A stretch of DNA of 59,986 bases from a virus (IMGVR_UViG_3300020474_000013:1-59986); one strand, 5' to 3'. Counted from the first letter of the stretch, positions 1 to 59,986 are shown. The notes: generated by a model from the sequence alone, not told the origin. Numbers and translations: made by a program.

Positions 1-77
1 ACGCTTCTATGATAAGCAATAGCATCTACTGGATTAGTAAATACTACTAATCCTGGAGTTTCTATTTCTGTATCTGG
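1..77. repeat. 77-bp terminal direct repeat (identical to 59910-59986); circular-assembly overlap
   Basis: acgcttctatgataagc...gtatctgg occurs at both ends, and a minus-strand reading frame continues through the join. Confidence 0.97.
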
Positions 78-36562: not shown

Positions 36563-36766
36563 CTATTGTTTTAAGTGTTGTTCTTTCCAATCAAGAACTT
36601 CACGCTCCGCAAGAGCTAATCCTTCTATAACTCCTGTCATTTTTTTGTAATCAGAAAAGTCTTTACAACTTCCTGTTGAGATATGGTCTGAACATTCATT
36701 CATCATTTCTCTTAATTTCTTAACTAAGAAAGCAGATAGTGATTGCTCATTTATATCATTACTCAT
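36563..36766 (-). CDS. Hypothetical protein
   Basis: 67 aa; DYKKMTGVIEGL, between portal and groES. Confidence 0.6.
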   Translation of the reverse strand: MSNDINEQSLSAFLVKKLREMMNECSDHISTGSCKDFSDYKKMTGVIEGLALAEREVLDWKEQHLKQ

Positions 36767-39230
36767 TCAATTTGCTATCATTAACTAAATCTTTAGCAAT
36801 GTCAATACCTGTTTTATAATCATCTAAAACTTTATTTTCTGCTTTTTCTTGTCTATCTAGCAAATCACTAGCAATTTGCTGTCCCATTTTTAAACCAGAT
36901 GACTCTTGTTGAGCTTTAATTCTTTGTTCTTCTAGTTCTTTATTAGATACAGCTTTAGCTGCATCTACAGCTAATCTACTTTCATCAATTCTTAATTTAC
37001 CTTCAACTTGTTTTTCTTTAATTTCAAGTTCTTTTTGTTTAGCTAATATTAATGGGTCTTGTGCTTGTTCTTGTATTCTTTGTTGTTCTGCTTGTGCAGC
37101 ATTTGTAGTTGCTACTCTTTGTGCAGCCTCAGCTACTAATGTAGATATTCTTTTCTCTACATCTGCTGGTAAAGGTTCTCCTACTGGAGGTAACTCTACA
37201 CCCATTTCTCTTTCAACTTGGTCTCTAAACTGTAATGCAAGATGTTGCATAATATAATCAGAACCAGCACTTTGTATAACTTGTGCATTTGGACTTTGTT
37301 GTACTTTAGCTTGAACATTAGGGTCTTGTTGTGCAGAAGCAAGTGTTTGTATATGAGCTTCATGGTCTTGGAACTCATATGCTTGTACTGGTTTACCATT
37401 TAATATATTTTGTACTGCTGTTACTGGGTCAACAGGTGGCACTTCTCCTTGTGGAGGTATTATTGTTTCTGCATCTTTAATGCCTAATACTTCAAGCATT
37501 TGTCTATGTAATTGACCTAAGTCATATAACTGCGGTGCTTGTTGTGCTAATTGCATAGCAGCTTGATACTGCATAATTCTTTGAGCCATAGTTGCAGCAT
37601 TTGGGTCTGATACAGGTAATACATCTACCCTTGCATCAAAATCTTGTACTTTAATTTGTTGTCCTTCTTCTACTTCATATGGATAAGCTGGTTCTGTAAA
37701 GTCTTTAATAACACCAACTAATATCTCAAACTCTCTTTTCATGGAAGCATGAAGTCTAGCTTGTACTGCTGACATAACTTTCATGTTTCTTTCTAGTAAA
37801 GCTAGTGTTGTTCCTACTGGTGCTTGACTATTCATGTCAGATGTTTTCATATCTGCAATACTTGCAAACCTTTTACCTTCTTCAACTATGTTCTGTAGTA
37901 AAGAAAATAATGTACCTGAAGGTTCTTTATAAGGTAAGAATGTAATATTGTCTCTAATAGCACCACCTGGTACATCTACATCTCTAAACTCACCAGGCAT
38001 AATGGGACTATCGTCTCCTTTTATACGCAGTCCTCTAGCTTTTAAACCACCTGGTAGGTTACTTAAAGTACCTGCATCTACTAATTGTCTTAGTATTGAT
38101 GTAGCTGATTTAGCTAATCCACCAATCATATGTATCAAACCAAAGCCATAGAAACCTAATCCTGGTAGATACTGATAGTGAACAAAGTGCATCCTTCTTA
38201 GTTTTGCTTGGTCATCTTCATAGTAGTTTCTTCTAATGCTAAGAATAATGCCTGAAGGACTATCCATTGTTACAACATAAGGTAAGGCTATACCTGTATC
38301 TTGACCATTAGCATCTTTATCTTCAAAACCTTTAATATCTAAATCTACCTGCATTTCTAAGATAGTATGTCTTGTATCATAGTCGTAGCTTTCTGATTCA
38401 CCAGTCATCTCGTTATACTTCTTAGTAATATCAGATGATGTTGGTGTAGCATCAGGTAGCTCTATATCTCTGTAAAATCCATTGACTTGCATCTTTCTTA
38501 CATCATTAGATGACTTCTTCATTACATGAGTAGCTCTTTCGCAAGTTTCTAAATCACTTGCACCATAATTAACTACTACATCTTCTGCTGGTACAAAGAT
38601 ACCGCTTGGTCTATTTAGTGTCGGGTCAAAATATATTTTTCTAAATGCTGAACCTGCAAGTGGTAAAGAGAACAACATCTTTTCTGTTTCACTTCTGTAT
38701 TCAGACATTTCATAAGTAAGCAAGTAATTAAGATAATCTTGTACTCTTTGACTTTGTTTTTCTTTACTAGAATCTATAGTGCCTACTATTTTAGTTCTTA
38801 CAGGACCTGAAGCAGGGAATATTTCTGATATAGCTTGTGATTGAAATTTAATAACAGCTTCACTTAACATAGGATGAAATACACCACAGGCTCCAGACCA
38901 AGGTGTAGTTCTTTCTTCTATTTTTAATCCTAGCTGGTCTAAGCCTTTAACATAGGTTTCTTCCCAGTCTGACCTTGAATCTTTATCTGATTGATATGCA
39001 CTTAATAACTCATTACCTATAGAGCTTAATTCATCTTCATCAATAAAATCTACTAAGTTAGAATCAAAACTAGCATCTGTTATTTGTGATGCATTAGGGT
39101 CAAAATCAATAATCATTCCACCATCATCGGTTTCTGTTGTTTCTACCTCTATGTCTAATTCTGGTTCAGGGTCCATTTCTACTAGACCATCTATTGGTGT
39201 AGCAGGAACGAATTGTTTTTCTATAGCCAA
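36759..39230 (-). CDS. Portal protein
   Basis: 823 aa directly after terL; HPMLSEA, GFYGFGLIH and APVGTTLALLE motifs. Confidence 0.85.
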   Translation of the reverse strand: MAIEKQFVPATPIDGLVEMDPEPELDIEVETTETDDGGMIIDFDPNASQITDASFDSNLVDFIDEDELSSIGNELLSAYQSDKDSRSDWEETYVKGLDQLGLKIEERTTPWSGACGVFHPMLSEAVIKFQSQAISEIFPASGPVRTKIVGTIDSSKEKQSQRVQDYLNYLLTYEMSEYRSETEKMLFSLPLAGSAFRKIYFDPTLNRPSGIFVPAEDVVVNYGASDLETCERATHVMKKSSNDVRKMQVNGFYRDIELPDATPTSSDITKKYNEMTGESESYDYDTRHTILEMQVDLDIKGFEDKDANGQDTGIALPYVVTMDSPSGIILSIRRNYYEDDQAKLRRMHFVHYQYLPGLGFYGFGLIHMIGGLAKSATSILRQLVDAGTLSNLPGGLKARGLRIKGDDSPIMPGEFRDVDVPGGAIRDNITFLPYKEPSGTLFSLLQNIVEEGKRFASIADMKTSDMNSQAPVGTTLALLERNMKVMSAVQARLHASMKREFEILVGVIKDFTEPAYPYEVEEGQQIKVQDFDARVDVLPVSDPNAATMAQRIMQYQAAMQLAQQAPQLYDLGQLHRQMLEVLGIKDAETIIPPQGEVPPVDPVTAVQNILNGKPVQAYEFQDHEAHIQTLASAQQDPNVQAKVQQSPNAQVIQSAGSDYIMQHLALQFRDQVEREMGVELPPVGEPLPADVEKRISTLVAEAAQRVATTNAAQAEQQRIQEQAQDPLILAKQKELEIKEKQVEGKLRIDESRLAVDAAKAVSNKELEEQRIKAQQESSGLKMGQQIASDLLDRQEKAENKVLDDYKTGIDIAKDLVNDSKLNE

Positions 39231-39239
39231 TATAATCTC

Positions 39240-40736
39240 CTAGTAATAATCTGCTGTTCTGTTATGTTCTATTGGTTCATCTTCTTCATCTGAATCAAGA
39301 GGAACAAAACCACCTTGCCTAAATCTTAATAATGCTTGCGTACTGCTATCAACCAAATCATCATGTTCCATATTAGGAAAACCAGCAAACTCTTCTATAA
39401 CTTCTTCTGCCCATCTTGTTTCAGGTGCCCAAACAACTCCTGAAGCAAACAAATCTGACACAGCATTTACTCTTGATATTTTATCATTACCACGACTAGG
39501 TGTATATTCTTGTACTGGTATGCCTGTTTGTCTAAGTTCAAATATTAAAGGTAGCCCTGCAGCCTTAGCTTCTACAATAAAAGCATCAGGTTTATAGGCA
39601 TTGTACTTCTCTAAAGCCATTTTCTTTAAATCTGGGAACTCTAAACGCTCTTTGTAGGCATCTAGTAGTATTAGTTGTGGAGCAACAAGACCATCATCGT
39701 TTTCTTTATAAAAAACACCCCAACTGGTACAGGCTGAATAGTCAGCTCTTTGTGTTTTTAAGAAAGCCGTGTCCCATGATTGGATAATAAACTCACAATC
39801 AGGAGGATTTCTACCTTCCCATGTTCTCCACCATTCTCTTTTAACAAGAGCACCTTCTTCAGAAGTAGGGTCTTGTTGATATTGAGCCATCCACTTAGAA
39901 CTAGGCAATTCAGCCTTCAAAGCTTCTAACTCTTCCAATTTCCAGAAAGCATCCCACAAAGGTTTACCAGAAGGTAAGATTGCAGGTAGTTCAATTACTT
40001 CCCATTGGTCGGCTCCGCCACGCTTTATACTAGCATCTACCACTTGACCCGTTAAATCCTTGTTATGCCATCTTGTCATCACTACAACGATTGCACCATT
40101 AGGCTGTAAACGCTGTCTAGGACCAGATGTGTACCATTCATAGGTACGATTAAAGACATTTATGTCTGCTGAAGCTCCTTCTTGCTCAGAGTGCGGGTCA
40201 TCTATGATGAGTAGGTCAGCACCTTTACCAGTAACTGCTCCTCCTACACCAATAGCGAAATATTCACCGCCTTTATTCGTATTCCAACGACCCGCAGCTT
40301 TGGAATCCGACTGCAAACTAACATTGGGGAATATTTTCTTAAAATCTTTGCTTCCTACAAGGTTTCTAACCTTCCTACCAAAGCCTACAGCTAGTTCTGC
40401 GGTGTGTGCGGTCTGAATAATCTTTTTTTCTGGCTTACTTCCCAGGAACCATGCAGGTAATAGGAAAGATGCAAACTCGGATTTGGTATGTCTAGGTGGC
40501 ATATTGATAATTAGACGCTTTAAATCGCCATTAGCTACCCTTTCAAAGGCATCCGCCATAATTTTATGATGGGGACCCTCTATAAATGCAGTCCACATCT
40601 CCTTAACAAAGGACATATACTCTTCTGCACACTTCTCTCGGGCTTTAGCATCTTCTAATTCATCTAATAAACCTAGTAACTCTCTCTTCTCATCCAAAGA
40701 AAGGTTTTGTACTTGACTTAATATTTGGTTACTCAT
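39240..40736 (-). CDS. terL: Terminase large subunit
   Basis: Walker A MPPRHTKS, Walker B LLIIDDP, nuclease motifs SWDTA and HDDLVDS. Confidence 0.95.
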   Translation of the reverse strand: MSNQILSQVQNLSLDEKRELLGLLDELEDAKAREKCAEEYMSFVKEMWTAFIEGPHHKIMADAFERVANGDLKRLIINMPPRHTKSEFASFLLPAWFLGSKPEKKIIQTAHTAELAVGFGRKVRNLVGSKDFKKIFPNVSLQSDSKAAGRWNTNKGGEYFAIGVGGAVTGKGADLLIIDDPHSEQEGASADINVFNRTYEWYTSGPRQRLQPNGAIVVVMTRWHNKDLTGQVVDASIKRGGADQWEVIELPAILPSGKPLWDAFWKLEELEALKAELPSSKWMAQYQQDPTSEEGALVKREWWRTWEGRNPPDCEFIIQSWDTAFLKTQRADYSACTSWGVFYKENDDGLVAPQLILLDAYKERLEFPDLKKMALEKYNAYKPDAFIVEAKAAGLPLIFELRQTGIPVQEYTPSRGNDKISRVNAVSDLFASGVVWAPETRWAEEVIEEFAGFPNMEHDDLVDSSTQALLRFRQGGFVPLDSDEEDEPIEHNRTADYY

Positions 40737-41188: not shown

Positions 41189-41262
41189 ATCCCAAAATCA
41201 GACCACATACAGCACACACACAGACCGCGTAATGCTCTATTAGATAGTTGGTTGATGATTGA

Positions 41263-41742
41263 CTATTGTTTGTTAAGTAATGCTTCTATTCGCTCTTCAA
41301 TATCCGCTTCAACTTCATCGCTTGTTCTTGCTTCTTTGGTTTCAACAACATCACTAAACAGCGATACACTTTTACCTAGCAATTCCAATGCTCGAATCCT
41401 AGCTGAATCTGAATCTGATTCTTTGGACTCACGATACAGTTGGTCTATGACATAGTTTCTTGTTCTGAGACTACTAGCAACTGCTGACTGCTCTTTACGT
41501 TCAATAGCCCTTTGTATGCTTATTGCTATCTTAGGGTTTGCAACTAAACGACTTGCTTCTACTTCTACCCACTTGGGAATCTTCCCTTGCTTAGTTAGAG
41601 CGACATCATAAACCTTTGCATATGCTTCTTTATAACTACCCAACTTGCCCTTGATAATTTCATCCACGAACTGCCTTTGCTTTATCGTTAATTCAATTTC
41701 TTTTTTGACTACTTTCAGATTTGGTTTTTCATCTTCGCTCAT
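41263..41742 (-). CDS. terS: Terminase small subunit
   Basis: LTIKQRQFVDE HTH, ASRLVANPKI, RIRALELLGK. Confidence 0.85.
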   Translation of the reverse strand: MSEDEKPNLKVVKKEIELTIKQRQFVDEIIKGKLGSYKEAYAKVYDVALTKQGKIPKWVEVEASRLVANPKIAISIQRAIERKEQSAVASSLRTRNYVIDQLYRESKESDSDSARIRALELLGKSVSLFSDVVETKEARTSDEVEADIEERIEALLNKQ

Positions 41743-41830
41743 ACTGAAATCTTATCTCAGATATGAAGAAAATATAATGCTCACAAAACGATAGCAAAAA
41801 TGGTGGACTGGTAAATAATTAATATAATGT

Positions 41831-41858
41831 TTGAAATGATGTTCAATCTATGCATAAT
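41831..41858 (+). promoter_or_regulatory. Candidate sigma70 promoter for the early operon
   Basis: TTGAAA-16 nt-CATAAT. Confidence 0.4.
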
Positions 41859-41906
41859 GTTCTTAACAAAGACAAAAAAGGAGAAACATTTATTAGACAA
41901 ATTTAA

Positions 41907-42086
41907 GCAACTACCAAGAAGCAGTATCACATTATTAATATACGAACTTGGTTGAGGGTCTCAAGAATTGCCCTCGTAGATAGAGAGAAGCTACATAACA
42001 AATATGCGTACCATTAGAAGTACTGAAAGACCTCGATATAGGTTGAAACAAAAGTACAGATGCGGAGACGATAATTTCCAGTTGCG
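41907..42086 (+). ncRNA. Candidate multi-stem structured RNA in the early leader
   Basis: Closing helix GCAACT/AGTTGC encloses ACCAAG/CTTGGT, GAGGGT/GCCCTC, GTAG/CTAC and ACCT/AGGT stems; no ORF. Confidence 0.45.
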
Positions 42087-42096
42087 ACTACTCCAA

Positions 42097-42151
42097 TAGT
42101 CTCTGAATTAACAGACTGATGAGCATCCTAATTATGGGGTGCAAGAAACTA
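42097..42151 (+). ncRNA. Type III hammerhead ribozyme 1 (variant with an AA insertion before GAAA)
   Basis: TAGT-C | TCTG-AATTAA-CAGA | CTGATGA | GCATCCTA-ATTA-TGGGGTGC | AA GAA-ACTA; predicted cut after GUC at 42101. Confidence 0.7.
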
Positions 42152-42174
42152 ATATATTCTTGGAGGAATTAATT

Positions 42175-43239
42175 ATGTTTAAACCAAGTGAAGCAAAAAC
42201 TTCATGCCTACATATTTTGAAAGGGAGTAATATTCCTTTTTTAATTGGTGGTACTGGAGTTGGAAAATCCGCAATAGTTAAAGAGATTGCGGAAGAACTA
42301 GCAAACGATAGAACTCTTACTGATTCAGTAAGTCCTAAAGATGATGAATTTGGATTCATATCTTTTAGACTTGGGTTAGTAGAATCTATTGATTTGGGAG
42401 GGTTGCCTTATATTGAAGAGGGAACTCAAAAGAAAGCATTTTTAGGCAACTTGCCTAGAAGTGGAAAGGGTCTATTTTTTCTTGATGAATTTGCACAAGC
42501 ACATTCAAGCGTTCAAGCAACGATAGGACAATTACTCGACCCAAAAGGAAAAAACGAAGAGCGAAGAATTGGCGATTATGTTTTTCCTAGTGGGTGGAAA
42601 ATTGTCTTAGCGGGAAATAGACATACTGATAGAAGCGGAGCAAATAAAATACTTAGGCATTGTCAAGATAGGACTACTGCTATTCAGTTTACTCACGATG
42701 TTGAGGACTGGTTAGCGTGGGCTGATAACAACGACATTGACTTGAATGTTCAAGGTCTAATTAGATTTATGCCACAGCTACTATGGGACTTTGACCCTAA
42801 ATGCAACGACCCACAGCCAAGCCCAAGAAGTTGGGTAAGGTTAAGCGATACTTTGAAAACTGACCCGCCAAAACGATTGATGCAAAAATTGTTTGAGGGC
42901 GATGTTGGACAAGAATCCGCTATTGAATTGATGAACTTTATCTCACTTCAAAATGATGTTCCAAACATATCTGATATATGTAAAGGAAAAGATGTTGAAG
43001 TTGTAGATGATGCGGGTCTTTGCTATGCGACAACGATTGCATTAACAACTGCAATTAACGGAGCGAATGATAACGATGTTTATGATTTCTTTGAAAATGC
43101 TTTGAACTATTTGAAGCAACTTTCAACTGTAGAATTTTCTATATTCTTTGTTAGAAAAATTACTGGACTTAGAAACGAACTCAAAGAGTGCGATGTATAT
43201 TCTAAGTTTAAAATTGATAACCAAGATTTAGAAATCTAA
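42175..43239 (+). CDS. MoxR-like AAA+ ATPase
   Basis: Walker A GGTGVGKS, Walker B FFLDEF, LAGNR, PSPRSW; start moved to the ATG after GGAGG. Confidence 0.88.
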   Translation: MFKPSEAKTSCLHILKGSNIPFLIGGTGVGKSAIVKEIAEELANDRTLTDSVSPKDDEFGFISFRLGLVESIDLGGLPYIEEGTQKKAFLGNLPRSGKGLFFLDEFAQAHSSVQATIGQLLDPKGKNEERRIGDYVFPSGWKIVLAGNRHTDRSGANKILRHCQDRTTAIQFTHDVEDWLAWADNNDIDLNVQGLIRFMPQLLWDFDPKCNDPQPSPRSWVRLSDTLKTDPPKRLMQKLFEGDVGQESAIELMNFISLQNDVPNISDICKGKDVEVVDDAGLCYATTIALTTAINGANDNDVYDFFENALNYLKQLSTVEFSIFFVRKITGLRNELKECDVYSKFKIDNQDLEI

Positions 43240-43297
43240 ACTCACGAAGCGACAAGGGAATATTTATTATTGACTGGTAAATATTCCTTTTCCGCTC

Positions 43298-43354
43298 ATT
43301 CTGATATTGGGATGTGTATCCCAACTGATGATTCAAAAATGATGAAATCAGAAT
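43298..43354 (+). ncRNA. Type III hammerhead ribozyme 2
   Basis: ATTCTGAT-A | TTGGGAT-GTGT-ATCCCAA | CTGATGA | T-TCA-AAAA-TGA-T | GAA-ATCAGAAT; predicted cut after AUA at 43306. Confidence 0.9.
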
Positions 43355-43384
43355 TTTATAAATAAATTCTTGGAGGAATTAATT

Positions 43385-44362
43385 ATGAAAAAAGATAATG
43401 CAAATACTTTATCTGAAAATGCAACTTTGGTGCGACTTACAACGAAGCATCCAAGCGGTATTAAATCAGATAAGGATTTAAAAGAGGGTCTAGCAATAGA
43501 CCAAAAAGCAAACAACGATTCACTTCACGTTGCGAAGTATATCTTTGGTAGGGAAGCAAATAGATATTTCAGAAGAATTATCAATCAGTTTAGGAATAAT
43601 TATTTTTATCCCTTAACTGTCCCTTGGGATGATAATACTAGCGACTTTGAGGGTAAAGTTTTAAGTGGGTGGCGATTATGTCCAAACCAAGAACTTGATA
43701 GGCTCATGGATAAAGTGAACGATGCTAAGGTTGACTTCCAAAAGGAAGTAAATTCATTTCTTGATAATTACGATAATTTAATTGAATGGAATAAACACAG
43801 ACTTGGCGATGCTTTTAAGTTGTCTGATTATCCTAAAAAAGAAGTGATAGAAACTAAGTTTAGATTTGATTTTGAACTTGGTACTGTCCCACAATTTAAC
43901 AGTAAGGATATTCGTTTAAATGTATCTGAGAAACTTCGCAAGAAGATTGAAAGCGATGCATTAAAAAGAGCAACTAAAAATATTGAAGCAATAACACGAA
44001 CTACTGTTGAAACTCTTTTGGAATCTGTAGAACATTTAGCTGACAAGCTAGAGTCTTATGACCCAAAAACAAAAGGTGGTGGATTCTTTAAGAATTCTAC
44101 TTTTGATAAGTTAAGACAAACTTTAGATACGCTTCCAAGTATCAATTCTGACATTCTAGGGAATGACAAAAAGATAGCGGAAGCACATCAAAATTTAGTT
44201 AGTGTCTTTGCAAAAATAAATGATGTTAATTCACTTCGTGATGATGATGATTATACGGACAAGAAGCGAAAGCAACTTGCGGATGATTTGAAAGATAGCG
44301 TTAGTGATTTGGCGGATGATATGAAAGGCGGATTTTTAGATTCAATGTATTCTAAAAAGTAA
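43385..44362 (+). CDS. Helical protein (DUF3150-like) associated with the AAA/vWA pair
   Basis: 325 aa between the MoxR ATPase and the vWA gene; T.PW...GWRL.P...LGDAF..SDYP motif. Confidence 0.5.
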   Translation: MKKDNANTLSENATLVRLTTKHPSGIKSDKDLKEGLAIDQKANNDSLHVAKYIFGREANRYFRRIINQFRNNYFYPLTVPWDDNTSDFEGKVLSGWRLCPNQELDRLMDKVNDAKVDFQKEVNSFLDNYDNLIEWNKHRLGDAFKLSDYPKKEVIETKFRFDFELGTVPQFNSKDIRLNVSEKLRKKIESDALKRATKNIEAITRTTVETLLESVEHLADKLESYDPKTKGGGFFKNSTFDKLRQTLDTLPSINSDILGNDKKIAEAHQNLVSVFAKINDVNSLRDDDDYTDKKRKQLADDLKDSVSDLADDMKGGFLDSMYSKK

Positions 44363-44420
44363 GCAAATGACTGGGCGGGGAAAAACTATTTACCAGTAAA
44401 TATTTTTCTTCGCTCCTTTT

Positions 44421-44475
44421 TTTCTGTATTGCAATGTGTATTGCAACTGATGATTAGGAAACTATGAAACAGAAA
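44421..44475 (+). ncRNA. Type III hammerhead ribozyme 3
   Basis: TTTCTGT-A | TTGCAAT-GTGT-ATTGCAA | CTGATGA | T-TAG-GAAA-CTA-T | GAA-ACAGAAA; predicted cut after GUA at 44428. Confidence 0.92.
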
Positions 44476-44506
44476 CTCATAAATAAAATTCTTGGAGGAA
44501 TTAATT

Positions 44507-45865
44507 ATGTTAAATAGTGAAGAGCGAATAATTAAAGCTAGAGCGAAACTTATGAAAGGTAATATTGGTATGGCTACCATGCTACTAAAACTTACTTTGA
44601 TTGAGGATAATGAGCGATGCCAAACTATGGCTACAGACGGAATTAATATTTATTGGAATGATGAATTTGTTAAATCAATATCAGATGAAGAAATCCAAAC
44701 AGTATTAATTCACGAAGCAAGTCATGTCATATGGGAACATCCAATTAGAAAAGGTAAACGAATTCACGAACTTTGGAACATAGCTACTGACTATGTAATT
44801 AACTCTTGGATAGCATACGATTTAGGTATGCAACTTCCCGAGGGTGGACTACTTGATAGGCAGTATCATAGACAAAGTGCAGAACAAGTTTATAGAACTT
44901 TATCTAATGATGATGAAGCCCTAGATGATGCCCTTGAACAATTAGAATCTAATTCAGATGATGATGATGATTCTGATTCTCAAAATGGCGGTGGCGATTC
45001 TGATTCAGATTCTGATGCAGATGCAGATGATTCTGATTCTCAAAGTGGCGATTCAGATGCTACTGGAAATGGACAAGGTAAATCTCTTGAAGAGAAACTT
45101 GCTGATGTCAAATTACCAAGTGGCGAAGTTTGGATGCCAACTAATGAAAATGGACAAGAACTATCGCCTACTGAAATGGCTGAACTACAAGAGGAACTTC
45201 AAAGAACAATATCAATGGCTGATAAGCTAGATACTATTGGAGAAAACCCTACTGGTGGTTTTGGTAAAGCTATGGAACAACTAAACGAAAGTTATGTTGA
45301 CTGGGTAGATGTAATGCGAGATTTATTGCAAAGCGTTTACTCTGATAATCCTACTTGGACAAGATTAAATAAAAGACATTCTTGGAGGGGGGTTAATTTA
45401 CCTAGCAGAGACAAAGAGCCACAAGGCGGAGAACTCGTAGTTGCTATTGATACAAGCGGAAGTGTTTCACAAGAAGAACTAAATGTTTTTGCAACTGAAA
45501 TCAATTCCCTAGCGGAAGAGTGTGGTATCAATAAAATTAGAGTTTGTTATTGTGATACTACTGTCCACAAAAACTCAAAAGGCGAATGGTGGGATGAATA
45601 CGACTTGGATTGTGAAGAGTTGGAACTTGTCTCTCGTGGCGGTGGCGGAACTTATTTTGACCCGCCTTTCAACTTGTACAACGACTACACAGAAGATACA
45701 GATGAAGTAGTAGCATTTATCTACTTTACAGATGGGTATGGCGAGTGTAGTGCAGAAGTTGAGCCCGATGTTCCAGTAATATGGGCATTGAGTGGTGGCG
45801 AAAATAGGTGGAGCAATGAACTTCCTTTTGGGGAAAAAGTTGCTATAGATTTCTCTAGTCTTTAA
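44507..45865 (+). CDS. DUF2201-type metallopeptidase with vWA domain
   Basis: TMATDG, HEASH, WNIATDYVIN, acidic D/S linker, MIDAS DTSGS, GGGGTYF, YFTDGY. Confidence 0.88.
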   Translation: MLNSEERIIKARAKLMKGNIGMATMLLKLTLIEDNERCQTMATDGINIYWNDEFVKSISDEEIQTVLIHEASHVIWEHPIRKGKRIHELWNIATDYVINSWIAYDLGMQLPEGGLLDRQYHRQSAEQVYRTLSNDDEALDDALEQLESNSDDDDDSDSQNGGGDSDSDSDADADDSDSQSGDSDATGNGQGKSLEEKLADVKLPSGEVWMPTNENGQELSPTEMAELQEELQRTISMADKLDTIGENPTGGFGKAMEQLNESYVDWVDVMRDLLQSVYSDNPTWTRLNKRHSWRGVNLPSRDKEPQGGELVVAIDTSGSVSQEELNVFATEINSLAEECGINKIRVCYCDTTVHKNSKGEWWDEYDLDCEELELVSRGGGGTYFDPPFNLYNDYTEDTDEVVAFIYFTDGYGECSAEVEPDVPVIWALSGGENRWSNELPFGEKVAIDFSSL

Positions 45866-45926
45866 TCGCAAATTGGTGTGGAGGAAAAAGTATTTACCAG
45901 TAAATATTTTTTCTTCCCGCATCAAA

Positions 45927-45983
45927 TTTCTAATATCAAGATGTGTATCTTGGCTGATGATTCTGAAAAGATGAAATTAGAAA
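45927..45983 (+). ncRNA. Type III hammerhead ribozyme 4
   Basis: TTTCTAAT-A | TCAAGAT-GTGT-ATCTTGG | CTGATGA | T-TCT-GAAA-AGA-T | GAA-ATTAGAAA; predicted cut after AUA at 45935. Confidence 0.9.
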
Positions 45984-46015
45984 CTTAAAAACTGTCCTTG
46001 GAGGGACATATAATT

Positions 46016-46849
46016 ATGCAAAATAATAATTATAAAAACGAGTGTTCTCCAGTTAGTACCCATGTTTCAGATGAAACTAAAACATGGTTAGATAACATGA
46101 AGAATAAATATAGTATTGATATTTCAACACAACTTTTTTATGTTGTTTCAAAGATGATTAAATCTGAAAAGCAATTAGAGAAAGTTGTAGTTGCCAGTCT
46201 ACTAGATGACCATGAGAGCAAGGGTAATACTTTGCGAGAAATGGCTAGTGAATTGGGTATTAAAGTCAATGTTAATGTAGCTGATAAAATTGCATCAAGA
46301 ATGGTGCCAGTTGTAAATGCTAATGTTGTTGATGTTTTTTCTAAACACAAAAAAACTGGTGTTGAAACAGCTAACATGATTAACGAATGTTTGGACAAAA
46401 ATTCAGATGTTAATACTGTAATGAAATCTAAGTTAGAGGAAGTTGTTTCTCAATCTAATGTGCAAGTTAAAACAGTTGATGAAATTGACTGGCAGAGATT
46501 AGCAAATTGGAAGTACAAAGACTTAGATATTCTTGGTGTATCCTTTGAAAATTATTCTATTCTTAAAGAAGATAATATCAAAAAAGGATTCAAGAATGGA
46601 TTGTATGCAACTTTGCATAGTCAAGCGTTAGGATTGTGGCGTGATGAAGAAAAGGAATTATCCATAAGGGATATTGCGAAACTTCAGCCCTATCAAACTC
46701 CAACTGGAGATTTTAGGATTCTTACAATTCAAACGATTGTTAAGAGACTTATCAAAGCTATTGTGCATTTTGGAACGGGAGAAGAGAAGCAATTACTCTT
46801 TGGAACTTTCCAAGTTTATCCGCATAAGGCTAAGAAAAAGTCTGTCTAA
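46016..46849 (+). CDS. Hypothetical early protein (possible N-terminal RHH and C-terminal HTH)
   Basis: 277 aa; VSTHVSDETKTWLDNM and LSIRDIAK stretches. Confidence 0.55.
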   Translation: MQNNNYKNECSPVSTHVSDETKTWLDNMKNKYSIDISTQLFYVVSKMIKSEKQLEKVVVASLLDDHESKGNTLREMASELGIKVNVNVADKIASRMVPVVNANVVDVFSKHKKTGVETANMINECLDKNSDVNTVMKSKLEEVVSQSNVQVKTVDEIDWQRLANWKYKDLDILGVSFENYSILKEDNIKKGFKNGLYATLHSQALGLWRDEEKELSIRDIAKLQPYQTPTGDFRILTIQTIVKRLIKAIVHFGTGEEKQLLFGTFQVYPHKAKKKSV

Positions 46850-47024
46850 GAAATTAGTGCAACAAAAACAATAGACCAGTAAATATTTTTTGATTCGCTG
46901 GGAAGGTTGTGGTTGCCGTATTTTTTTCTGATGCAATATGAGAGTGGGTTTTTTGGGGTATCTTAGACCCTTAACCTACTCTCAATTTTGCAATAGGCGA
47001 AGTCTCACGAAGTCAATTTTGCCA

Positions 47025-47083
47025 AAACTGTATAGAAAATGCGTATTTTCTACTGATGATTGCCTAAAGGCATGAAACAGTTT
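47025..47083 (+). ncRNA. Type III hammerhead ribozyme 5
   Basis: AAACTGT-A | TAGAAAAT-GCGT-ATTTTCTA | CTGATGA | T-TGCC-TAAA-GGCA-T | GAA-ACAGTTT; predicted cut after GUA at 47032. Confidence 0.92.
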
Positions 47084-47117
47084 ATTAAACTTAACTGCCC
47101 TTGGAGGGGTAATTATT

Positions 47118-47369
47118 ATGAAAAACGAAAAAGAATATACAATATGTTTAACGACAAATTGTTCATATGAATATAAAGTAAAAGCTAAAGATAGGAACGA
47201 AGCTATAATTAAAGCTAAAGAAGATTTAATATCTGATTTACAAAATAAAACCAATGACATTGTAAAATCTCAATGGTATGTATGCGATGTTGATACTAAT
47301 TTAGATGATGATGAGTTTGTTCTTACCCATAGTTTTGGAACATTAAAAGGTATGGGGGGTTTAGAATGA
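47118..47369 (+). CDS. Hypothetical early protein
   Basis: 83 aa; GGAGG RBS; VKAKDRNEAIIKAKE. Confidence 0.65.
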   Translation: MKNEKEYTICLTTNCSYEYKVKAKDRNEAIIKAKEDLISDLQNKTNDIVKSQWYVCDVDTNLDDDEFVLTHSFGTLKGMGGLE

Positions 47370-47632
47370 CTAATCGAGAACTATTAGAATTTACTTTGAA
47401 AGTAAACATAGGAACTTGCAACGAAATCTATACAAAGATTAATAGGGAACTAGAACAAAAATCAGATATTGATATGGCTCTAGTTAAATATTTTAATACT
47501 TTGGTTTCAATCAATCATAAAGTGCAAGATGTTTTATATAAGGAAAGGGAAAACTTAAACATCCCTAACCCAAAACATTTTGGATTTACAACTAATGATG
47601 AGATTGTAGAAGTTGAAGTGCAAGAACTGTAA
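47366..47632 (+). CDS. Hypothetical early protein
   Basis: 88 aa, ATGA overlap, followed by a terminator. Confidence 0.65.
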   Translation: MTNRELLEFTLKVNIGTCNEIYTKINRELEQKSDIDMALVKYFNTLVSINHKVQDVLYKERENLNIPNPKHFGFTTNDEIVEVEVQEL

Positions 47633-47640
47633 ACAAATTA

Positions 47641-47684
47641 AGGCGGTATGCTACTGTAAAAGGTAGTGTACCGCCTTTTTTTTT
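47641..47684 (+). terminator. Intrinsic terminator of the early operon
   Basis: AGGCGGTATGCTAC/GTAGTGTACCGCCT stem followed by a T-run. Confidence 0.9.
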
Positions 47685-47829
47685 GGTCTAAAAAAAGTGG
47701 ATATACGCAGGATAACTGGGATGGTAATAAAAAATATTTACTGGTATATTGTTTTTTCTGGTGTTGTTTGGGGTGGGGTAATGTTAGATGAGATGACAAA
47801 AAATAAAATATATTTACTGGTTTTCAAGC

Positions 47830-47861
47830 TGTGGATAACTTTGTGGAAAACCTGTAGATAA
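47830..47861. promoter_or_regulatory. Three tandem DnaA boxes
   Basis: TGTGGATAA (perfect TTATCCACA), TGTGGAAAA and TGTAGATAA at 12- and 11-bp spacing, same orientation. Confidence 0.75.
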
Positions 47862-47864
47862 CCC

Positions 47865-47893
47865 TTGCAATTTGCTATCAATTACATTATATT
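47865..47893 (+). promoter_or_regulatory. Sigma70 promoter for the small RNA
   Basis: TTGCAA-17 nt-TATATT. Confidence 0.65.
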
Positions 47894-47896
47894 AAT

Positions 47897-48015
47897 GGAA
47901 CTAATATTTGATTGCATAAGATTTTTAGTTTTCCTAAATGCAACTTTCATATATTAACCTCCAAGCTTATTATTAAGTTTAAAAGGGATAGTCGTAAGAT
48001 TGTCCCTTTTTTTTT
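47897..48015 (+). ncRNA. Candidate trans-acting antisense small RNA
   Basis: Own promoter and terminator; 5' stem; central TTTCATATATTAACCTCCAAG is complementary to the CTTGGAGG...ATG leaders of the five ribozyme-preceded genes. Confidence 0.65.
47981..48015 (+). terminator. Intrinsic terminator
   Basis: AAAAGGGATAGTC-GTAA-GATTGTCCCTTTT followed by a T-run. Confidence 0.9.
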
Positions 48016-48242
48016 GGTAGTCGGTTGATAGTCTATGATAGGCGACACACCACCAAGTCTCCAACAGAAAAATCCCAGACTGGTAAATATTTTTTATCCT
48101 GAAATCACAGAGATGATAGAAACCTGTAGTGTTTAATAATACAGCAGTAGGGGTGATGAGGCGTTGTAAAACAATAGACTGGTAAATATTTTATTTTTGT
48201 CAGGAAAAACTACTGGTCTAGGAAACACAGCAGTAGGGTAAA

Positions 48243-48258
48243 TGTTCCACGTGGAACA
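48243..48258. promoter_or_regulatory. parS-like palindrome
   Basis: TGTTCCACGTGGAACA is a perfect 16-bp palindrome matching chromosomal parS (tGTTtCACGTGAAACa). Confidence 0.75.
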
Positions 48259-48297
48259 ATATGTATTTCACTTTGATAGCATTTTGCAGTATAATAA

Positions 48298-48618
48298 TTG
48301 CTTATGTATGCGGTAATAAGACACACATATCATTTAGATATACCCGAGCCAAGCAATGTTTATTCAACTAAATCTAGTGCTAAATGGAAACATTTTGTAT
48401 GGATATTTGAAACTGAACTAGATGCTCTTGCCTTTGCCATATCACTTTTAGATGACCCTTTGATTATGTCTAATAAATGGTTGATTGAAAGTGCCATAAA
48501 GCAATTAGAAGAAGATAGGTATTATCAAGTTGGTAGAGAGTCTGTAGCTATTGCAGAAGTGCAAGATAGTCCGCAAGTTATTTATGAGGATGATAAAAAT
48601 GAAAAGTCTATTCATTAG
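48298..48618 (+). CDS. Hypothetical protein
   Basis: ~105 aa directly after a TTCACT-17-TATAAT promoter (48267-48295); probably leaderless from the ATG at 48304. Confidence 0.6.
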   Translation: MLMYAVIRHTYHLDIPEPSNVYSTKSSAKWKHFVWIFETELDALAFAISLLDDPLIMSNKWLIESAIKQLEEDRYYQVGRESVAIAEVQDSPQVIYEDDKNEKSIH

Positions 48619-48856
48619 ATGTTCAGAAGAAACCTACGAATTGGCACATTCCTTAGCTAAGAAAGAAAGTCGTTCACTAAACAAGCAAATTATTCATATG
48701 ATTCATAGTGAAGCTGACAAGAAAGATATTGAGGTAGAAGATAAACCTAGCGTTGCACAAAATGGTACAACATTACATCAATCTGAAACTACTTTTGAAT
48801 CTAAACTTGGCTTACAAGGGATTGTTGAAACAAGGAAACAGGATTCTTCTGACTAA
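48599..48856 (+). CDS. Arc-like ribbon-helix-helix DNA-binding protein
   Basis: MKSLFIRCSEETYELAHSLAKKESRSLNKQIIHMI; GAGG RBS. Confidence 0.85.
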   Translation: MKSLFIRCSEETYELAHSLAKKESRSLNKQIIHMIHSEADKKDIEVEDKPSVAQNGTTLHQSETTFESKLGLQGIVETRKQDSSD

Positions 48857-49340
48857 TATACCAAAAAGTTAGTAGTGCATTAGAACATTGTTGCATTACT
48901 AACTCCTTTGTTTCGCATATCTCTTTAGGATTATCTATCATAATCTTCCAAAAAACCTTTTCTTTATTGTGTCCACAATCATTCACTAACTTTTTCTGTA
49001 TTCTTGAAAGCATGACTGCCTTTGGTGGAGGCTGATTAAATCTATGACTGGTAAATATTTCTTTTCCCATCCCAGAAGCTCTCCCCAAAGCTCCACTTTT
49101 TGCTATTAATTCAAGGTATTTATTACAGACATTGTGTTGCTCTGCTGTAATTTTTTGCTGTAAGAAAGATTTATCTATGATGTGTTGGTCAAACACGATT
49201 GCCCTACCAACCTTGCTTTTACCTATTTTGGTTATTGCAACTTGGTTTCTGAAATGTAGATAAGGACTTCCTATATCATTAACTTGTAATGTTTCAGAAC
49301 TCCCAGTCAAAGTTATCTTCAACTTCTTCAATTTCTGCAT
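48801..49340 (-). CDS. Hypothetical protein downstream of the primase-helicase
   Basis: Up to 179 aa; start uncertain. Confidence 0.55.
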   Translation of the reverse strand: MQKLKKLKITLTGSSETLQVNDIGSPYLHFRNQVAITKIGKSKVGRAIVFDQHIIDKSFLQQKITAEQHNVCNKYLELIAKSGALGRASGMGKEIFTSHRFNQPPPKAVMLSRIQKKLVNDCGHNKEKVFWKIMIDNPKEICETKELVMQQCSNALLTFWYISQKNPVSLFQQSLVSQV

Positions 49341-51063
49341 ATCTCCCGTTGACTGGATTAAAGGTCATATTAACACTTCCTAACTTGCCTTGCCAACCCC
49401 ACCTAGCTTTCCAGTTATGTATTTCAACTCCCTCTTCTCCTCTGTAAACTGTTAATCCTGTATCAGCCTTACTAAACCAAGCATATGATTTAGCTACATC
49501 AACTCCTGTACATACATTCTTTTTGCCATCCCTAATAAATGGTTTAGTTGGATGTGCAACAAAGAACACTAATACATCGTGTTGCTTTGCGAACAGTTGC
49601 ACTTTCGTTAGCATTTCACTAACCATATCAGTTTCTAATCCTGTATGGTCTGTATGTATAAAGTTAAATGGGTCTATGACTAAAATCCTAACACCATATC
49701 TCATAACTGCACTTGCTCCTTTTTCAAGGATAGCTTCTATTGTTGGCAACCCGCCATCTTGATAGTCTTGAAATAGTATGTGTTCTCTTATCCAAGTTTC
49801 CGCAAAGTCTTTCTCCTCTTGTGTCATTCTTGCGTTAAACCCCTCAAAGAATGGCTTACCTACAAGGATTTGAGACAACTGTACTGCATGAAGTTGTACT
49901 GGTTTCTCAAACGAACAGAAACAAGTTTTCCAACCATTGTTCCTTGCAACATTGACTATTAGTTGGTCTATAAATGCTGACTTGCCATCCCCTGCATGAC
50001 CAGTACAAACAACTAAATTGCCTGTAGATAAAGTAAAGATTTCATCTACACTTGGATAGCCTGTAGATACACCACTAGGCATACCCTTATCATACAAACT
50101 TTGGAATTCATCTGCGTAATGCTCTAGGTTATTTAATCCATGTAAAGGAATAGGCTCTGCGTTAATGATTGAATCTCTTAGCTTTTCCGCTCCATATTTA
50201 ATTAATACATCGTTTGCATCCTTACAATCAAAGTTATTTACTCTATAACACCTAGCTTTGTTTAATCTTCTAGCTAATTCATCTGCTAGTATGTTTCCGT
50301 TTTCATCTGCATCTGTACATAAAATAACCCTTTCAACACCCTCAAACTTATCTCTATCGTTCCATACATACTTAAATCTTCCATCCTCACTTGGGTCTAT
50401 CTTGTTATCAGTAATCTTGTTTGGTGCACCATTTGGAACTGAATAACAATCTACATTCATTACATTCTCAAAGGCTGTCTTGATAGCCAATGTGTCCATT
50501 TCTCCCTCTGTTATGATGATTGTGCTTTCTAATGTTGGCAATTTGCTGTCATAAACCTGTTGTCCCCAAAGCTTTTGTGCGTTCCCATCCCACCAAAAAC
50601 TCTTTGTTCCGTTTGCACTCCTATACTTAACTGCTTCTACCTCCCCATCGCTGACGAAGGAAAAACCAATGACTGGTTTATTATTTTTTTCGGTCTGGAT
50701 GACTCCTGTGGTTTCCGAGGCTGTAATACTTATACCTCTTTCCTGCAACCAATCACTAGCTTTGCCATTAGGTATATTTTTTGGTGCTTCTACTGGTTTT
50801 TTTACTTCTTGTTTTACTACTTTCATTTTAAATTCCTCTCTCCTTGATACTAAGCCATTGATACCGCAATGATGACAATGATATATAACCTTATCAGACT
50901 CAATATTTACTGATAAAGGTTTGTCGTGTTTGTTTTTACTCCTCTCATTTTGGCATGAGGGACATGATATTTTGTGTTGACCAAGCTTCATTCCGCTTGT
51001 TCTTGATTGATTATTTATATGACTTAAAAAGTCTCTTTTATCCATTTCACTATTGACATACAT
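49294..51063 (-). CDS. DNA primase-helicase (T7 gp4/Twinkle-like)
   Basis: Zn finger CPSC...CHHC; TOPRIM TEGEMD, D.D..G, KDAND; helicase GHAGDGKS, LVIDPFN, VAHP. Confidence 0.93.
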   Translation of the reverse strand: MYVNSEMDKRDFLSHINNQSRTSGMKLGQHKISCPSCQNERSKNKHDKPLSVNIESDKVIYHCHHCGINGLVSRREEFKMKVVKQEVKKPVEAPKNIPNGKASDWLQERGISITASETTGVIQTEKNNKPVIGFSFVSDGEVEAVKYRSANGTKSFWWDGNAQKLWGQQVYDSKLPTLESTIIITEGEMDTLAIKTAFENVMNVDCYSVPNGAPNKITDNKIDPSEDGRFKYVWNDRDKFEGVERVILCTDADENGNILADELARRLNKARCYRVNNFDCKDANDVLIKYGAEKLRDSIINAEPIPLHGLNNLEHYADEFQSLYDKGMPSGVSTGYPSVDEIFTLSTGNLVVCTGHAGDGKSAFIDQLIVNVARNNGWKTCFCSFEKPVQLHAVQLSQILVGKPFFEGFNARMTQEEKDFAETWIREHILFQDYQDGGLPTIEAILEKGASAVMRYGVRILVIDPFNFIHTDHTGLETDMVSEMLTKVQLFAKQHDVLVFFVAHPTKPFIRDGKKNVCTGVDVAKSYAWFSKADTGLTVYRGEEGVEIHNWKARWGWQGKLGSVNMTFNPVNGRYAEIEEVEDNFDWEF

Positions 51064-56098: not shown

Positions 56099-56479
56099 AT
56101 GCTAAAAGATATACTACAAGAAAAATTAGATAAACGAAAAAGGAAATGGTGGGAGTGGCACAAAAAGAATCCACAAGTTTGGGATAAGTTTGAATCTTAT
56201 ACCTTAGAAGCTATCAATAGTGGTAGGAAAAAGTATTCGCATTGGGCGATAATCAATCGTATTCGTTGGCACAATGAGATAGAAACTAGAGGTGGGGACT
56301 TTAAGATAAGCAATGATTACATCTGTTTCTATGCCCGTTTATTCCATGCTAGACATCCACAATACAAAGACTTCTTTACATTGAAACCATTGAAAGAAGA
56401 AAAGGATATGGCTATGTTAGAGGTTAAGACTGAAAATAGGAATGTTAGCTTTCTTCCTCAGTTGAGGAACCATAGCTAG
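56099..56479 (+). CDS. Conserved phage hypothetical protein
   Basis: HKKNPQVW..F...IINRIRW...FKISNDY..FYARLF. Confidence 0.6.
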   Translation: MLKDILQEKLDKRKRKWWEWHKKNPQVWDKFESYTLEAINSGRKKYSHWAIINRIRWHNEIETRGGDFKISNDYICFYARLFHARHPQYKDFFTLKPLKEEKDMAMLEVKTENRNVSFLPQLRNHS

Positions 56480-59400: not shown

Positions 59401-59909
59401 GATTTAATATATTAGCAATATCATTCATATATTTAGTAACAATATTTGCAAGTTCTTCTTTTGATGAAGCTAAACCTCTTGTTTCATTACCTATTGGTTT
59501 CATAGGCAATCCTTTACCCTCCATAACAGATTTAACTTGTTCTGGAGGTAATGGGTCTCCTATATCAGTCATCTCAGGACTAAAAAATCTTTGTGGAACT
59601 TCACCAGTTCTATCTATTGCTCTACCAAAATATGGATTAATTTTTGTTTGAGTAAGTTCTTCTAATGTAGCACTACCTAATATGTTATTAACATTTTTAA
59701 AATAATTTAAATTATTATCTACATCTAAATATACAGATTGTGTTACATCATTACTAAGCAATCCTTTTGTTTCTCTGCCAAACCCTGGTCTTAAAGAACC
59801 CAATCCAAAAGCATTTGGATTAGGTTGCCAATTTAAACCACCAATATCTCTATCAGTACCTTTTTTAACAGCTATTAAAACTAAATCAGATAGTTCTTCT
59901 CTCCAATCT
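56417..59909 (-). CDS. C-terminal part of the giant polyvalent protein, with an LPD38-like C-terminal domain
   Basis: The frame stays open upstream of the listed TTG to the window end; EYKNLKREVRDDNWVMPIG...KIPIPFEVGMLFKAIPER resembles LPD38. Confidence 0.85.
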
Positions 59910-59986
59910 ACGCTTCTATGATAAGCAATAGCATCTACTGGATTAGTAAATACTACTAATCCTGGAGTTTCTATTTCTGTATCTGG
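59910..59986. repeat. 77-bp terminal direct repeat (copy of 1-77)
   Basis: Exact match to bases 1-77. Confidence 0.97.

Follow-up and report, generated by a model that had tools for sequence, protein, structure and literature searches.

In the early transcript of phage T7, host RNase III cuts imperfect intercistronic hairpins of about two helical turns and leaves 5′-phosphate and 3′-OH ends, giving stable single-gene mRNAs. In prophages, multiple hammerhead ribozymes often flank single genes or short gene blocks; three such arrangements cut transcripts of ∼2 kb in vitro and one, from Agrobacterium, also in vivo, and the main text of that study proposes that long phage transcripts are thereby processed to operon- or gene-length mRNAs (Perreault 2011, PMC3088659). 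In the text of a 2019 review (PMC6765202), the role of bacterial and phage hammerheads is still given as suggested and unproven. Here we analysed IMGVR_UViG_3300020474_000013, a complete virus record from IMG/VR of 59,986 bp that has terminal repeats and is rated 100% complete; 'the window' denotes this whole stretch of DNA. Between positions 42097 and 47083, a sequence-only reading had placed five type III hammerheads, one per early gene, that would do the job of the T7 RNase III sites with no host nuclease. We conclude with high confidence that copies 2–5 are hammerheads of type III topology, as covariation and a full descriptor attest; copy 1 has AA before G12, is not a consensus hammerhead and drops out of that count.

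The motifs, triplets, loops, four stem I pairings and cut-to-ATG distances quoted in the sequence-only reading are all present as placed. CTGATGA starts at 42116, 43325, 44447, 45954 and 47053, with the matching GAAA at 42145, 43344, 44466, 45973 and 47074. The cleavage triplets of copies 1–5 (GTC, ATA, GTA, ATA and GTA) end at 42101, 43306, 44428, 45935 and 47032, which puts the predicted cuts 74, 79, 79, 81 and 86 nt before ATGs at 42175, 43385, 44507, 46016 and 47118. The elements were searched with a full descriptor (CTGANGA, GAAA, stem II with a base mismatch allowed, a stem I hairpin, U16.1, H17 not G, and stem III) and with R1, a covariance model made from copies 2–4. The five copies are as follows.

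42097-42151, plus strand: copy 1, hammerhead-like element of the same topology ('AA class'), predicted cut after C42101 (triplet GTC)
43299-43353, plus strand: copy 2, type III hammerhead, predicted cut after A43306; 84.4 bits with R1 (training sequence), descriptor match 43298-43354
44421-44475, plus strand: copy 3, type III hammerhead, predicted cut after A44428; R1 training sequence, descriptor match
45927-45983, plus strand: copy 4, type III hammerhead, predicted cut after A45935; R1 training sequence, descriptor match, 17.7 bits with the Rfam type III model RF00008
47025-47083, plus strand: copy 5, type III hammerhead with 8-bp stem I and 4-bp stem II, predicted cut after A47032; 41.2 bits with R1, outside the training set

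Copies 2–5 all have A at H17 and GAAA directly after position 11.1; loop 1 is GTGT in three of them and GCGT in one, and loop 2 reads AAAA, GAAA, GAAA and TAAA. Over the 59,986-bp genome the full descriptor found exactly these four copies and nothing on the minus strand, and twenty shuffled genomes gave one match in total. The simpler motif CTGATGA-N6-30-GAAA occurred six times in the window against 1.24 expected, a number reached in 0 of 100 shuffles. Five of the six matches lie on the plus strand between 42116 and 47077. The sixth, on the minus strand at 11757-11790, has neither stems nor an Rfam match and was rejected as a chance match. When the elements were folded in isolation, the hammerhead was the minimum free energy (MFE) structure for copies 3 and 5.

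The copies covary within this genome, as the sequence-only reading held, and the covariation proved far stronger across relatives. We fetched 35 related viral contigs by homology of the VWA protein encoded in the array (61–91% identity), not by RNA. In the window and these contigs, R1 at E up to 1 gave 115 matches, at the same gene junctions, all on the gene strand and including copy 5; the weakest three (18.7 bits) are parts of type I hammerheads. In an alignment of 65 distinct rows fitted to R1, 97.9% of pair cells are standard pairs, compared with 69.6% when shuffled, and changes on both sides are seen in 16 of 17 pairs. The covariation score is 0.760, against at most 0.145 with the partners slid by 1–3 columns. 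As a check, the 61 of 110 distinct R1 matches that are 55 nt long, a model-selected set and so biased toward pairing, were aligned with MAFFT; this alignment was ungapped, RNAalifold returned the same three-way junction, and 14 of its 16 predicted pairs showed compensatory changes. Covariation is present in all three helices around the junction, with stems I and II capped by loops and stem III open.

Constraint in the same 65 rows falls on the catalytic core. C3, U4, G5 and A6 are invariant (65/65), as are G8 and G12, A13 and A14 (65/65 each); A9 is kept in 64/65 and the A15.1-U16.1 pair in 64/64. N7 is free (U50 C7 A5 G3), and H17 is A46 C17 U1 with no G (column counts). Position 10.1/11.1 alternates between U-U, G-C and G-U in relatives, some of which have an extra U after A9. 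This pattern is the one expected of an active hammerhead, and we know of no other explanation for it. Sequence is also conserved in loop 1 (GTGT and the two pairs that close it) and in loop 2 (RAAA), with no loop–loop covariation seen; the conservation of both loops suggests a possible tertiary contact between them.

The hammerheads precede plus-strand genes that are best explained as one operon (42175-47632), closed by an intrinsic terminator.

42175-43239, plus strand: gene 1, AAA+ ATPase (MoxR/AAA_5-like; Pfam AAA_5 4.8e-5, phrog_1297 5.6e-61)
43385-44362, plus strand: gene 2, DUF3150 protein (Pfam PF11348 4.9e-8)
44507-45865, plus strand: gene 3, DUF2201 metallopeptidase-like and VWA-like protein (Pfam PF13203 1.1e-29, PF09967 2e-17)
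46016-46849, plus strand: gene 4, no family match in the Pfam or PHROGs scans
47118-47369 and 47366-47632, plus strand: genes 5 and 6, from the open reading frame (ORF) list, overlapping by 4 nt
47640-47677, plus strand: intrinsic terminator after gene 6, 16 pairs (7 G-C) and then a T run

A consensus terminator scan found none at the gene junctions of the operon and a strong one only after gene 6. Promoters of the sigma-70 type were not enriched in 41200-49400 (28 found, 30.4 expected), no phage RNA polymerase was seen among the 19 window proteins scanned against PHROGs, and blastn against deposited phages gave no match for 42000-47200. Because genes 5 and 6 overlap by 4 nt, they form one translational unit. 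Of the proposal of one ribozyme per early gene, what survives is one per translational unit of a single terminator-closed operon. The word 'early' is not supported, since the assembly closes into a circle, a giant ORF spans its ends and gene timing is unreadable from position. Within the VWA gene, 44950-45080 is a repetitive Asp/Ser-rich tract (GAT/TCT repeats), where indels of 3 and 12 nt distinguish the RNA-library contigs of relatives.

Position is kept in the relatives even where the form of the ribozyme is not. In most relatives the place of copy 1, before the ATPase gene, is taken by type I hammerheads, of which there are three kinds; one of these scores 27.1 bits with RF03152 (RAGATH-1 hammerhead), below its cut-off of 56.3. 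In one clade (L027:4908-4981, L031, L032, L036 and L038), a type I hammerhead stands at the DUF3150/VWA junction, and its stem III is the ACCAGT-containing ATATTTACCAGTTAAATATT hairpin, so that hairpin and ribozyme are fused. With type I hammerheads at the same junctions, selection seems to act on a cut at that place. The five near-complete relatives have 19 R1 matches between them, and in each of the five (5/5) these are confined to a single strand and a segment of ∼2.6–4.5 kb. Given this clustering and the exchange between types I and III, the ribozymes are a property of this operon, kept at its junctions, and their topology is exchangeable. Relative L037 has three consecutive type I hammerheads (1473-2618) 5′ of the ATPase gene, which indicates that some relatives have longer arrays and extra small genes. 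Relative L012 has an extra hammerhead and gene in the interval that matches junction 5.

Each hammerhead is embedded in further RNA structure. Junctions 2–4 align over their full length as a repeated module of ∼145 nt that consists of a long hairpin, the hammerhead and a hairpin holding the Shine–Dalgarno (SD) sequence.

43248-43296, plus strand: long hairpin of junction 2, contains ACTGGTAAATATT; the fold of 43240-43387 has an MFE of -37.8 kcal/mol and z -3.84
44373-44415, plus strand: long hairpin of junction 3, from the fold of 44363-44509; the 7 T in a row that come next overlap stem III of copy 3
45873-45925, plus strand: long hairpin of junction 4, 24 pairs; the fold of 45866-46015 has an MFE of -41.6 kcal/mol and z -4.68
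42155-42170, 43365-43380, 44487-44502, 45993-46008 and 47096-47111, plus strand: SD hairpins, from the folds, the last two also in the terminator scan listing

The long hairpins before copies 2–4 have 16–24 pairs, and the junction folds have z-scores of -2.8 to -4.7. Among relatives, z was below -2 in 49 of 75 distinct 75-nt segments upstream of hammerheads. All SD hairpins have the loop TGGA and a 3′ arm that starts with GG and holds the rest of the SD. Their arms differ by junction yet stay paired (AATTCT/GGAATT at 43365-43380, TGTCCT/GGGACA, TGCCCT/GGGGTA), with further variants in relatives. In junction 5 (268 nt), ∼130 nt of extra structured sequence stand between the parts, which are a hairpin with the motif described below, the hammerhead and the SD hairpin. 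Between its motif hairpin and copy 5 lies an additional, strongly structured hairpin of ∼60 nt (46932-46992; fold of 46850-46999, z -4.65).

The best reading of this arrangement, and in our judgement a probable one, is that one operon transcript is cut co-transcriptionally into per-cistron mRNAs, with cleavage predicted from the conserved cores. Hammerhead chemistry is an internal transesterification. As the transcript emerges, copies 2–5 would fold and cut themselves after A43306, A44428, A45935 and A47032. A type III cut falls near the 5′ end of the hammerhead, so each upstream mRNA would end just past its long hairpin, with a 2',3'-cyclic phosphate a few nt beyond it. The downstream piece would begin with a 5′-OH at the stem I hairpin and keep the rest of the ribozyme as a 5′ leader, 79–86 nt before the ATG. 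The outcome would be one mRNA per translational unit with structured ends, independent of where the transcript originated. Both types of end slow bacterial RNA decay, and they may do so here. We infer self-cleavage in vivo, a single polycistronic precursor and an effect on mRNA stability or translation.

A number of observations weigh against transcript cutting by these elements. At gathering thresholds Rfam gave no match in the whole window, and at E up to 10 over 41500-47600 (6.1 kb) it gave no hammerhead; the latter miss is a filter effect, as copy 5 reaches 31.6 bits with the same model when a short stretch is searched. Run on 47010-47100 alone (91 nt), RF00008 aligned end to end (model 1-54) to 47025-47083 with E 1.1e-5 and flagged the U-U pair as non-standard. 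With six short stretches searched together, it found copy 1 (21.7 bits, E 0.042) and copy 4 (17.7 bits) and nothing for copies 2, 3 and 5 or the minus-strand control. No copy reached the RF00008 gathering score of 48.5 bits (range 17.7–31.6 bits). The check with hammerhead models that the sequence-only reading had called for returned sub-threshold scores, together with an end-to-end alignment for copy 5. That reading had also passed over two deviations, namely the U-U at 10.1/11.1 with a short stem II in copies 2–5, and the AA with a 4-bp contiguous stem III in copy 1. The U-U mismatch means that copies 2–5 lack a Watson–Crick pair at 10.1/11.1, and their stem II is weak, with U-U plus just 3–4 pairs. 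The AA of copy 1 (42143-42144) lies between C11.1 and G12 and places it outside the strict core definition. Finally, a competing fold is the MFE for copies 2 and 4 in isolation, and the z-scores of the isolated elements are modest (-1.3 to -2.6). Of these deviations, the 10.1/11.1 mismatch is a known and tolerated one: natural hammerheads may start stem II with U10.1-U11.1, the most active of the mismatches in the main text of Perreault 2011 (PMC3088659).

RNA-library data bear on the same question. Eight RNA-library runs hold 5–7% of the sampled words. Four marine or seawater runs from different studies were compared as assembled contigs, with possible DNA carry-over, patchy cover and ends that are not visible in such contigs. 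Stretches of ∼150 nt with 0 differences in runs X1, X4 and X7 place near-identical sequence in those libraries. Two contigs of a relative in run X2 bridge the predicted cuts of copies 4 and 5 (record 12, 45746-46008; record 13, 46997-47094), which represent either uncleaved RNA or carried-over DNA and add to the points on the opposing side, although such contigs demonstrate neither cleavage nor a lack of it.

A further such point is a sequence motif, ACYRGTAAATATT(TTT), with 24 matches at up to two mismatches, compared with 5.13 expected. Its positions include the following.

43273, 44392, 45896, 46875, 48079, 48178 and 49047, plus strand: ACYRGTAAATATT(TTT) motif
47733, 47809, 50902 and 56059, minus strand: ACYRGTAAATATT(TTT) motif

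In junctions 2–4, ACYRGTAAATATT forms the 3′ arm of the long hairpins, and it also occurs away from hammerheads on both strands. It could be a promoter, a protein site or an RNA hairpin, and in the first two cases the precursor need not be polycistronic; the long hairpin adjoining each hammerhead could also be a nuclease site itself. On the promoter or protein-site reading, the genes would be transcribed separately from junction-specific promoters or protein-recognised sites in the ACYRGTAAATATT hairpin, and the hammerhead would trim a short leader so that read-through and local transcripts share a 5′ end, acting as an insulator and not as an operon cutter. The excess of the motif speaks for this, as do its place 25–35 nt before the cut in junctions 2–4 and its presence at 48079 and 48178, upstream of the next plus-strand genes. 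Furthermore, ACYRGTWAAT is present in 57 of 75 distinct segments upstream of hammerheads in relatives, so the motif is kept in sequence and not just in pairing. As a sigma-70 promoter the motif was rejected, since the consensus did not fit: no sigma-70-like -35/-10 accompanies the sites, and promoter-like sites number 28 against 30.4 expected. The motif also lies on both strands and inside ORFs (47733, 47809, 50902 and 56059 on the minus strand, 49047 on the plus strand); in the clade with the fused type I hammerhead it is stem III and hence transcribed RNA; and no phage RNA polymerase was found among the scanned proteins. On balance we regard separate transcription with leader trimming as unlikely.

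The same ribozyme class extends well beyond this operon. The pattern ATGTGTAT-N5-CTGATGAT occurs in at least 118 stretches in IMG/VR. Of 114 loci fetched, 69 new ones were searched, and 49 had R1 matches (78 in total at E up to 0.01); the remaining 20 look like chance matches to the pattern. A 24-base hammerhead pattern retrieved 22 stretches from bacterial metagenome-assembled genomes (MAGs; L160-L181), with stems I and III paired in all, and these show the class as loop GTGT, U-U at 10.1/11.1, a 3-bp stem II and an RAAA loop. The MAGs are labelled Saccharibacteria/Patescibacteria/Paceibacterota (14), Gammaproteobacteria (3), Chloroflexota (1) and unclassified (4). Inference of a host from these stretches was rejected, because none of them encodes the operon proteins. 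From the IMG/VR and MAG matches, the loop-GTGT/U-U hammerhead is a common class in phages and bacteria.

Such spread is also what might be seen if the hairpin–hammerhead–ribosome-binding site (RBS) modules were selfish or neutral recombination cassettes, whose cleavage may be real and brings the phage no benefit beyond tolerance. The presence of the class in viral contigs that are unrelated (of the 49 loci with R1 matches, 24 have no operon protein within the fetched stretch) and in the 22 MAG stretches fits this account, as do the full-length alignment of junctions 2–4 and the type I/type III exchange at orthologous junctions. Neutral elements would decay, whereas here the core is intact at every junction across proteins that are 61–91% identical, the position relative to the SD is fixed, and the copies share the gene strand (154 descriptor matches in the 35 loci against 3 on the other strand, some long gene-strand matches being spurious or nested). 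We therefore hold the cassette account to be quite improbable, and cutting of the operon transcript stays the preferred reading. That the elements are three-way junctions without a useful rate of cleavage in the cell (given U-U, the short stem II and the AA of copy 1), serving as structural mRNA elements, protein-binding sites or conditional switches, would accommodate the sub-threshold Rfam scores, the competing folds of copies 2 and 4, the bridging contigs and the slow phage variants in the main text of Perreault 2011 (PMC3088659), where regulated cleavage is raised as a possibility, but it is very improbable, because without catalysis one can hardly account for invariance at exactly the catalytic positions, a free N7 and a position 17 that never holds G, and because U10.1-U11.1 is reported there as active.

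Copy 1 belongs to a subclass of its own. It was not detected by the full descriptor or by R1, and it fails the descriptor because two A separate stem II from GAAA. Its parts, and the segment just 5′ of it, are as follows.

42086-42101, plus strand: 5′ hairpin segment, GACTA/TAGTC with loop CTCCAA (anti-SD, 42091-42096); the 3′ arm is the 5′ strand of stem III plus C17 of copy 1
42102-42105 with 42112-42115, plus strand: stem I of copy 1, loop AATTAA; stem III is TAGT/ACTA (4 bp)
42116-42122, plus strand: core of copy 1
42123-42142, plus strand: stem II of copy 1 (6–8 bp)
42143-42144, plus strand: AA of copy 1, followed by GAAA at 42145-42148

Anchoring on loop 1 and stem II only, we found one AA-class element in 21 of the 36 homology-retrieved sources (the window and the 35 loci). 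All 21 have the core CTGANGA (N7 U10, A8, C3), the tail AAGAAACT and the triplet GTC. In IMG/VR, the pattern with AA occurs in at least 119 viral stretches, and the pattern without it (two non-A bases, then CGAAAC) in none. Among 72 distinct cores, stem I is fully paired in 72/72 with 2–4 pair types at three positions, and stem II has at least 6 pairs in 72/72. U16.1 is present in 72/72 and H17 is C71 U1; position 16.2 is always G opposite C, and 15.3/16.3 is paired in 70/72 with A-U/U-A exchange. Since AA is constant across a subclass of 72 paired and covarying cores, the insertion is, on these sequences, selected and not decay. A pairing between loop 1 and loop 2 of the AA class (AATTAA with TAATTAT) was unsupported, because by eye loop 2 varies without a matching change in loop 1.

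The AA class is also linked to translation signals. In 89 of 90 distinct contexts, GGAG is no more than 44 nt 3′ of GAAA (usually 7–10 nt), and CTCC lies up to 20 nt 5′ of the cut in 66 of the 90. The GACTA/TAGTC arms covary in relatives (GACTG/CAGTC, GACTT/AAGTC, GACTC/GAGTC). In the MFE fold of 42040-42180, CTCCAA pairs instead with TTGGAG of the SD, which is an alternative to the GACTA/TAGTC hairpin that hides the cleavage site. For the AA class, SD accessibility is predicted to rise from 0.46 in the precursor to 0.75 in the 3′ product, and it is 0.58 with the upstream 40 nt shuffled; the p of 0.007 is overstated, as the sequences are related. For the GTGT class of copies 2–5, sequestration of the SD by the 5′ fragment was rejected (0.56 for real sequences against 0.53 for shuffled ones). 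If copy 1 is active, a cut after C42101 would remove a leader whose anti-SD (CTCCAA) is complementary to the SD of gene 1. Copy 1 may then be an undescribed variant of the hammerhead core, with an obligatory AA before G12, a 4-bp stem I with an AATTAA loop and a sequence-conserved stem II with a U-G pair, which would work at the start of phage operons as a natural switch that couples translation to cleavage. The anti-SD on the 5′ fragment would either be part of a local hairpin that masks the cleavage site or pair with the SD and so extend stem III, and self-cleavage would irreversibly free the SD; together with the downstream modules, the operon would amount to a natural ribozyme insulator set. 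We put this forward as a tentative and rather doubtful reading, and the modelled SD release coupled to cleavage is a lead and not a result. Even so, if the array harbours anything new, it is most likely to be found in the AA subclass and its anti-SD. Searches on hammerhead arrays in phages, natural hammerheads linked to an SD, RAGATH and insertions close to G12, in a coverage mostly without subscription journals and supplements, gave no description of this operon or of the AA variant.

The rest of the record provides the genomic setting. Its minus strand holds the packaging and structural genes in 1-41742.

41263-41742, minus strand: small terminase
39240-40736, minus strand: large terminase
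36759-39230, minus strand: portal

Two open-ended ORFs on the minus strand (3-5075 and 56417-59986) meet across the record ends and would together give one protein of ∼2,880 aa. The only PHROG families that its C-terminal part matches are of unknown function and have profiles of 1,600–3,400 positions. Because these ORFs meet across the ends, the terminal repeat probably arose as an overlap in the assembly of a genome that is circular or permuted.

The array is real, and it is a well-conserved and unusually regular member of the phage hammerhead clusters described in 2011. It offers an unusually clean study case, with a ribozyme per translational unit, a fixed module (3′-protecting hairpin, ribozyme and SD hairpin), many variants and type I/III swaps. 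It also supplies a comparative data set and simple constructs for the effects of ribozymes on the stoichiometry, stability and translation of neighbouring cistrons. If active, the AA subclass would widen the accepted hammerhead core and provide a natural parallel to engineered ribozyme RBS switches.

The clusters in Clostridium scindens, Azorhizobium caulinodans and the Agrobacterium tumefaciens ardA locus, compared here by the main text of their description and not its supplementary alignments (PMC3088659), likewise have several hammerheads on one (coding) strand, flanking individual genes or short gene blocks within a phage transcript, with cutting of a long transcript into gene-length mRNAs as the proposed role. 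In contrast to those, the window has five elements in 5 kb, one per translational unit, in a repeated hairpin–ribozyme–SD module; the array is kept in at least 35 related contigs with type I/III replacement, and the genes are ATPase, DUF3150 and VWA. A parallel to copy 1 is HHphage of haloviruses HF1/HF2, a variant-core hammerhead just 5′ of the first ORF of a polycistronic phage transcript, whose cut site falls at a mapped 5′ end (Perreault 2011, PMC3088659). As given in that main text, its insertions are near C3/stem I, whereas copy 1 has AA between stem II and G12 and an anti-SD 5′ of the cut. With the type III family RF00008, the elements share the three-way junction with open stem III, the CUGANGA and GAAA cores, A15.1-U16.1, the NUH triplet and conserved loops 1 and 2; they differ in that copies 2–5 have U10.1-U11.1 in place of G-C and 3–4 further stem II pairs, and copy 1 has two extra A. 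Like the RNase III sites of T7, the hammerheads are intercistronic elements that would divide a polycistronic phage transcript into stable mRNAs of one gene each, whose ends are structured; unlike them, a hammerhead needs no protein and leaves 5′-OH and 2',3'-cyclic phosphate ends. The analogy drawn in the sequence-only reading is thus reasonable as a 'works like' comparison. Lou et al. in 2012 and Wieland and Hartig in 2008 reportedly made synthetic counterparts, namely RiboJ insulators and ribozyme switches in which cleavage liberates a sequestered RBS. Those devices are synthetic, whereas the operon described here is a candidate natural counterpart, in which a hammerhead in the 5′ untranslated region would likewise standardise the mRNA 5′ end and, in the class of copy 1, carry an anti-SD on the fragment that is cut off.

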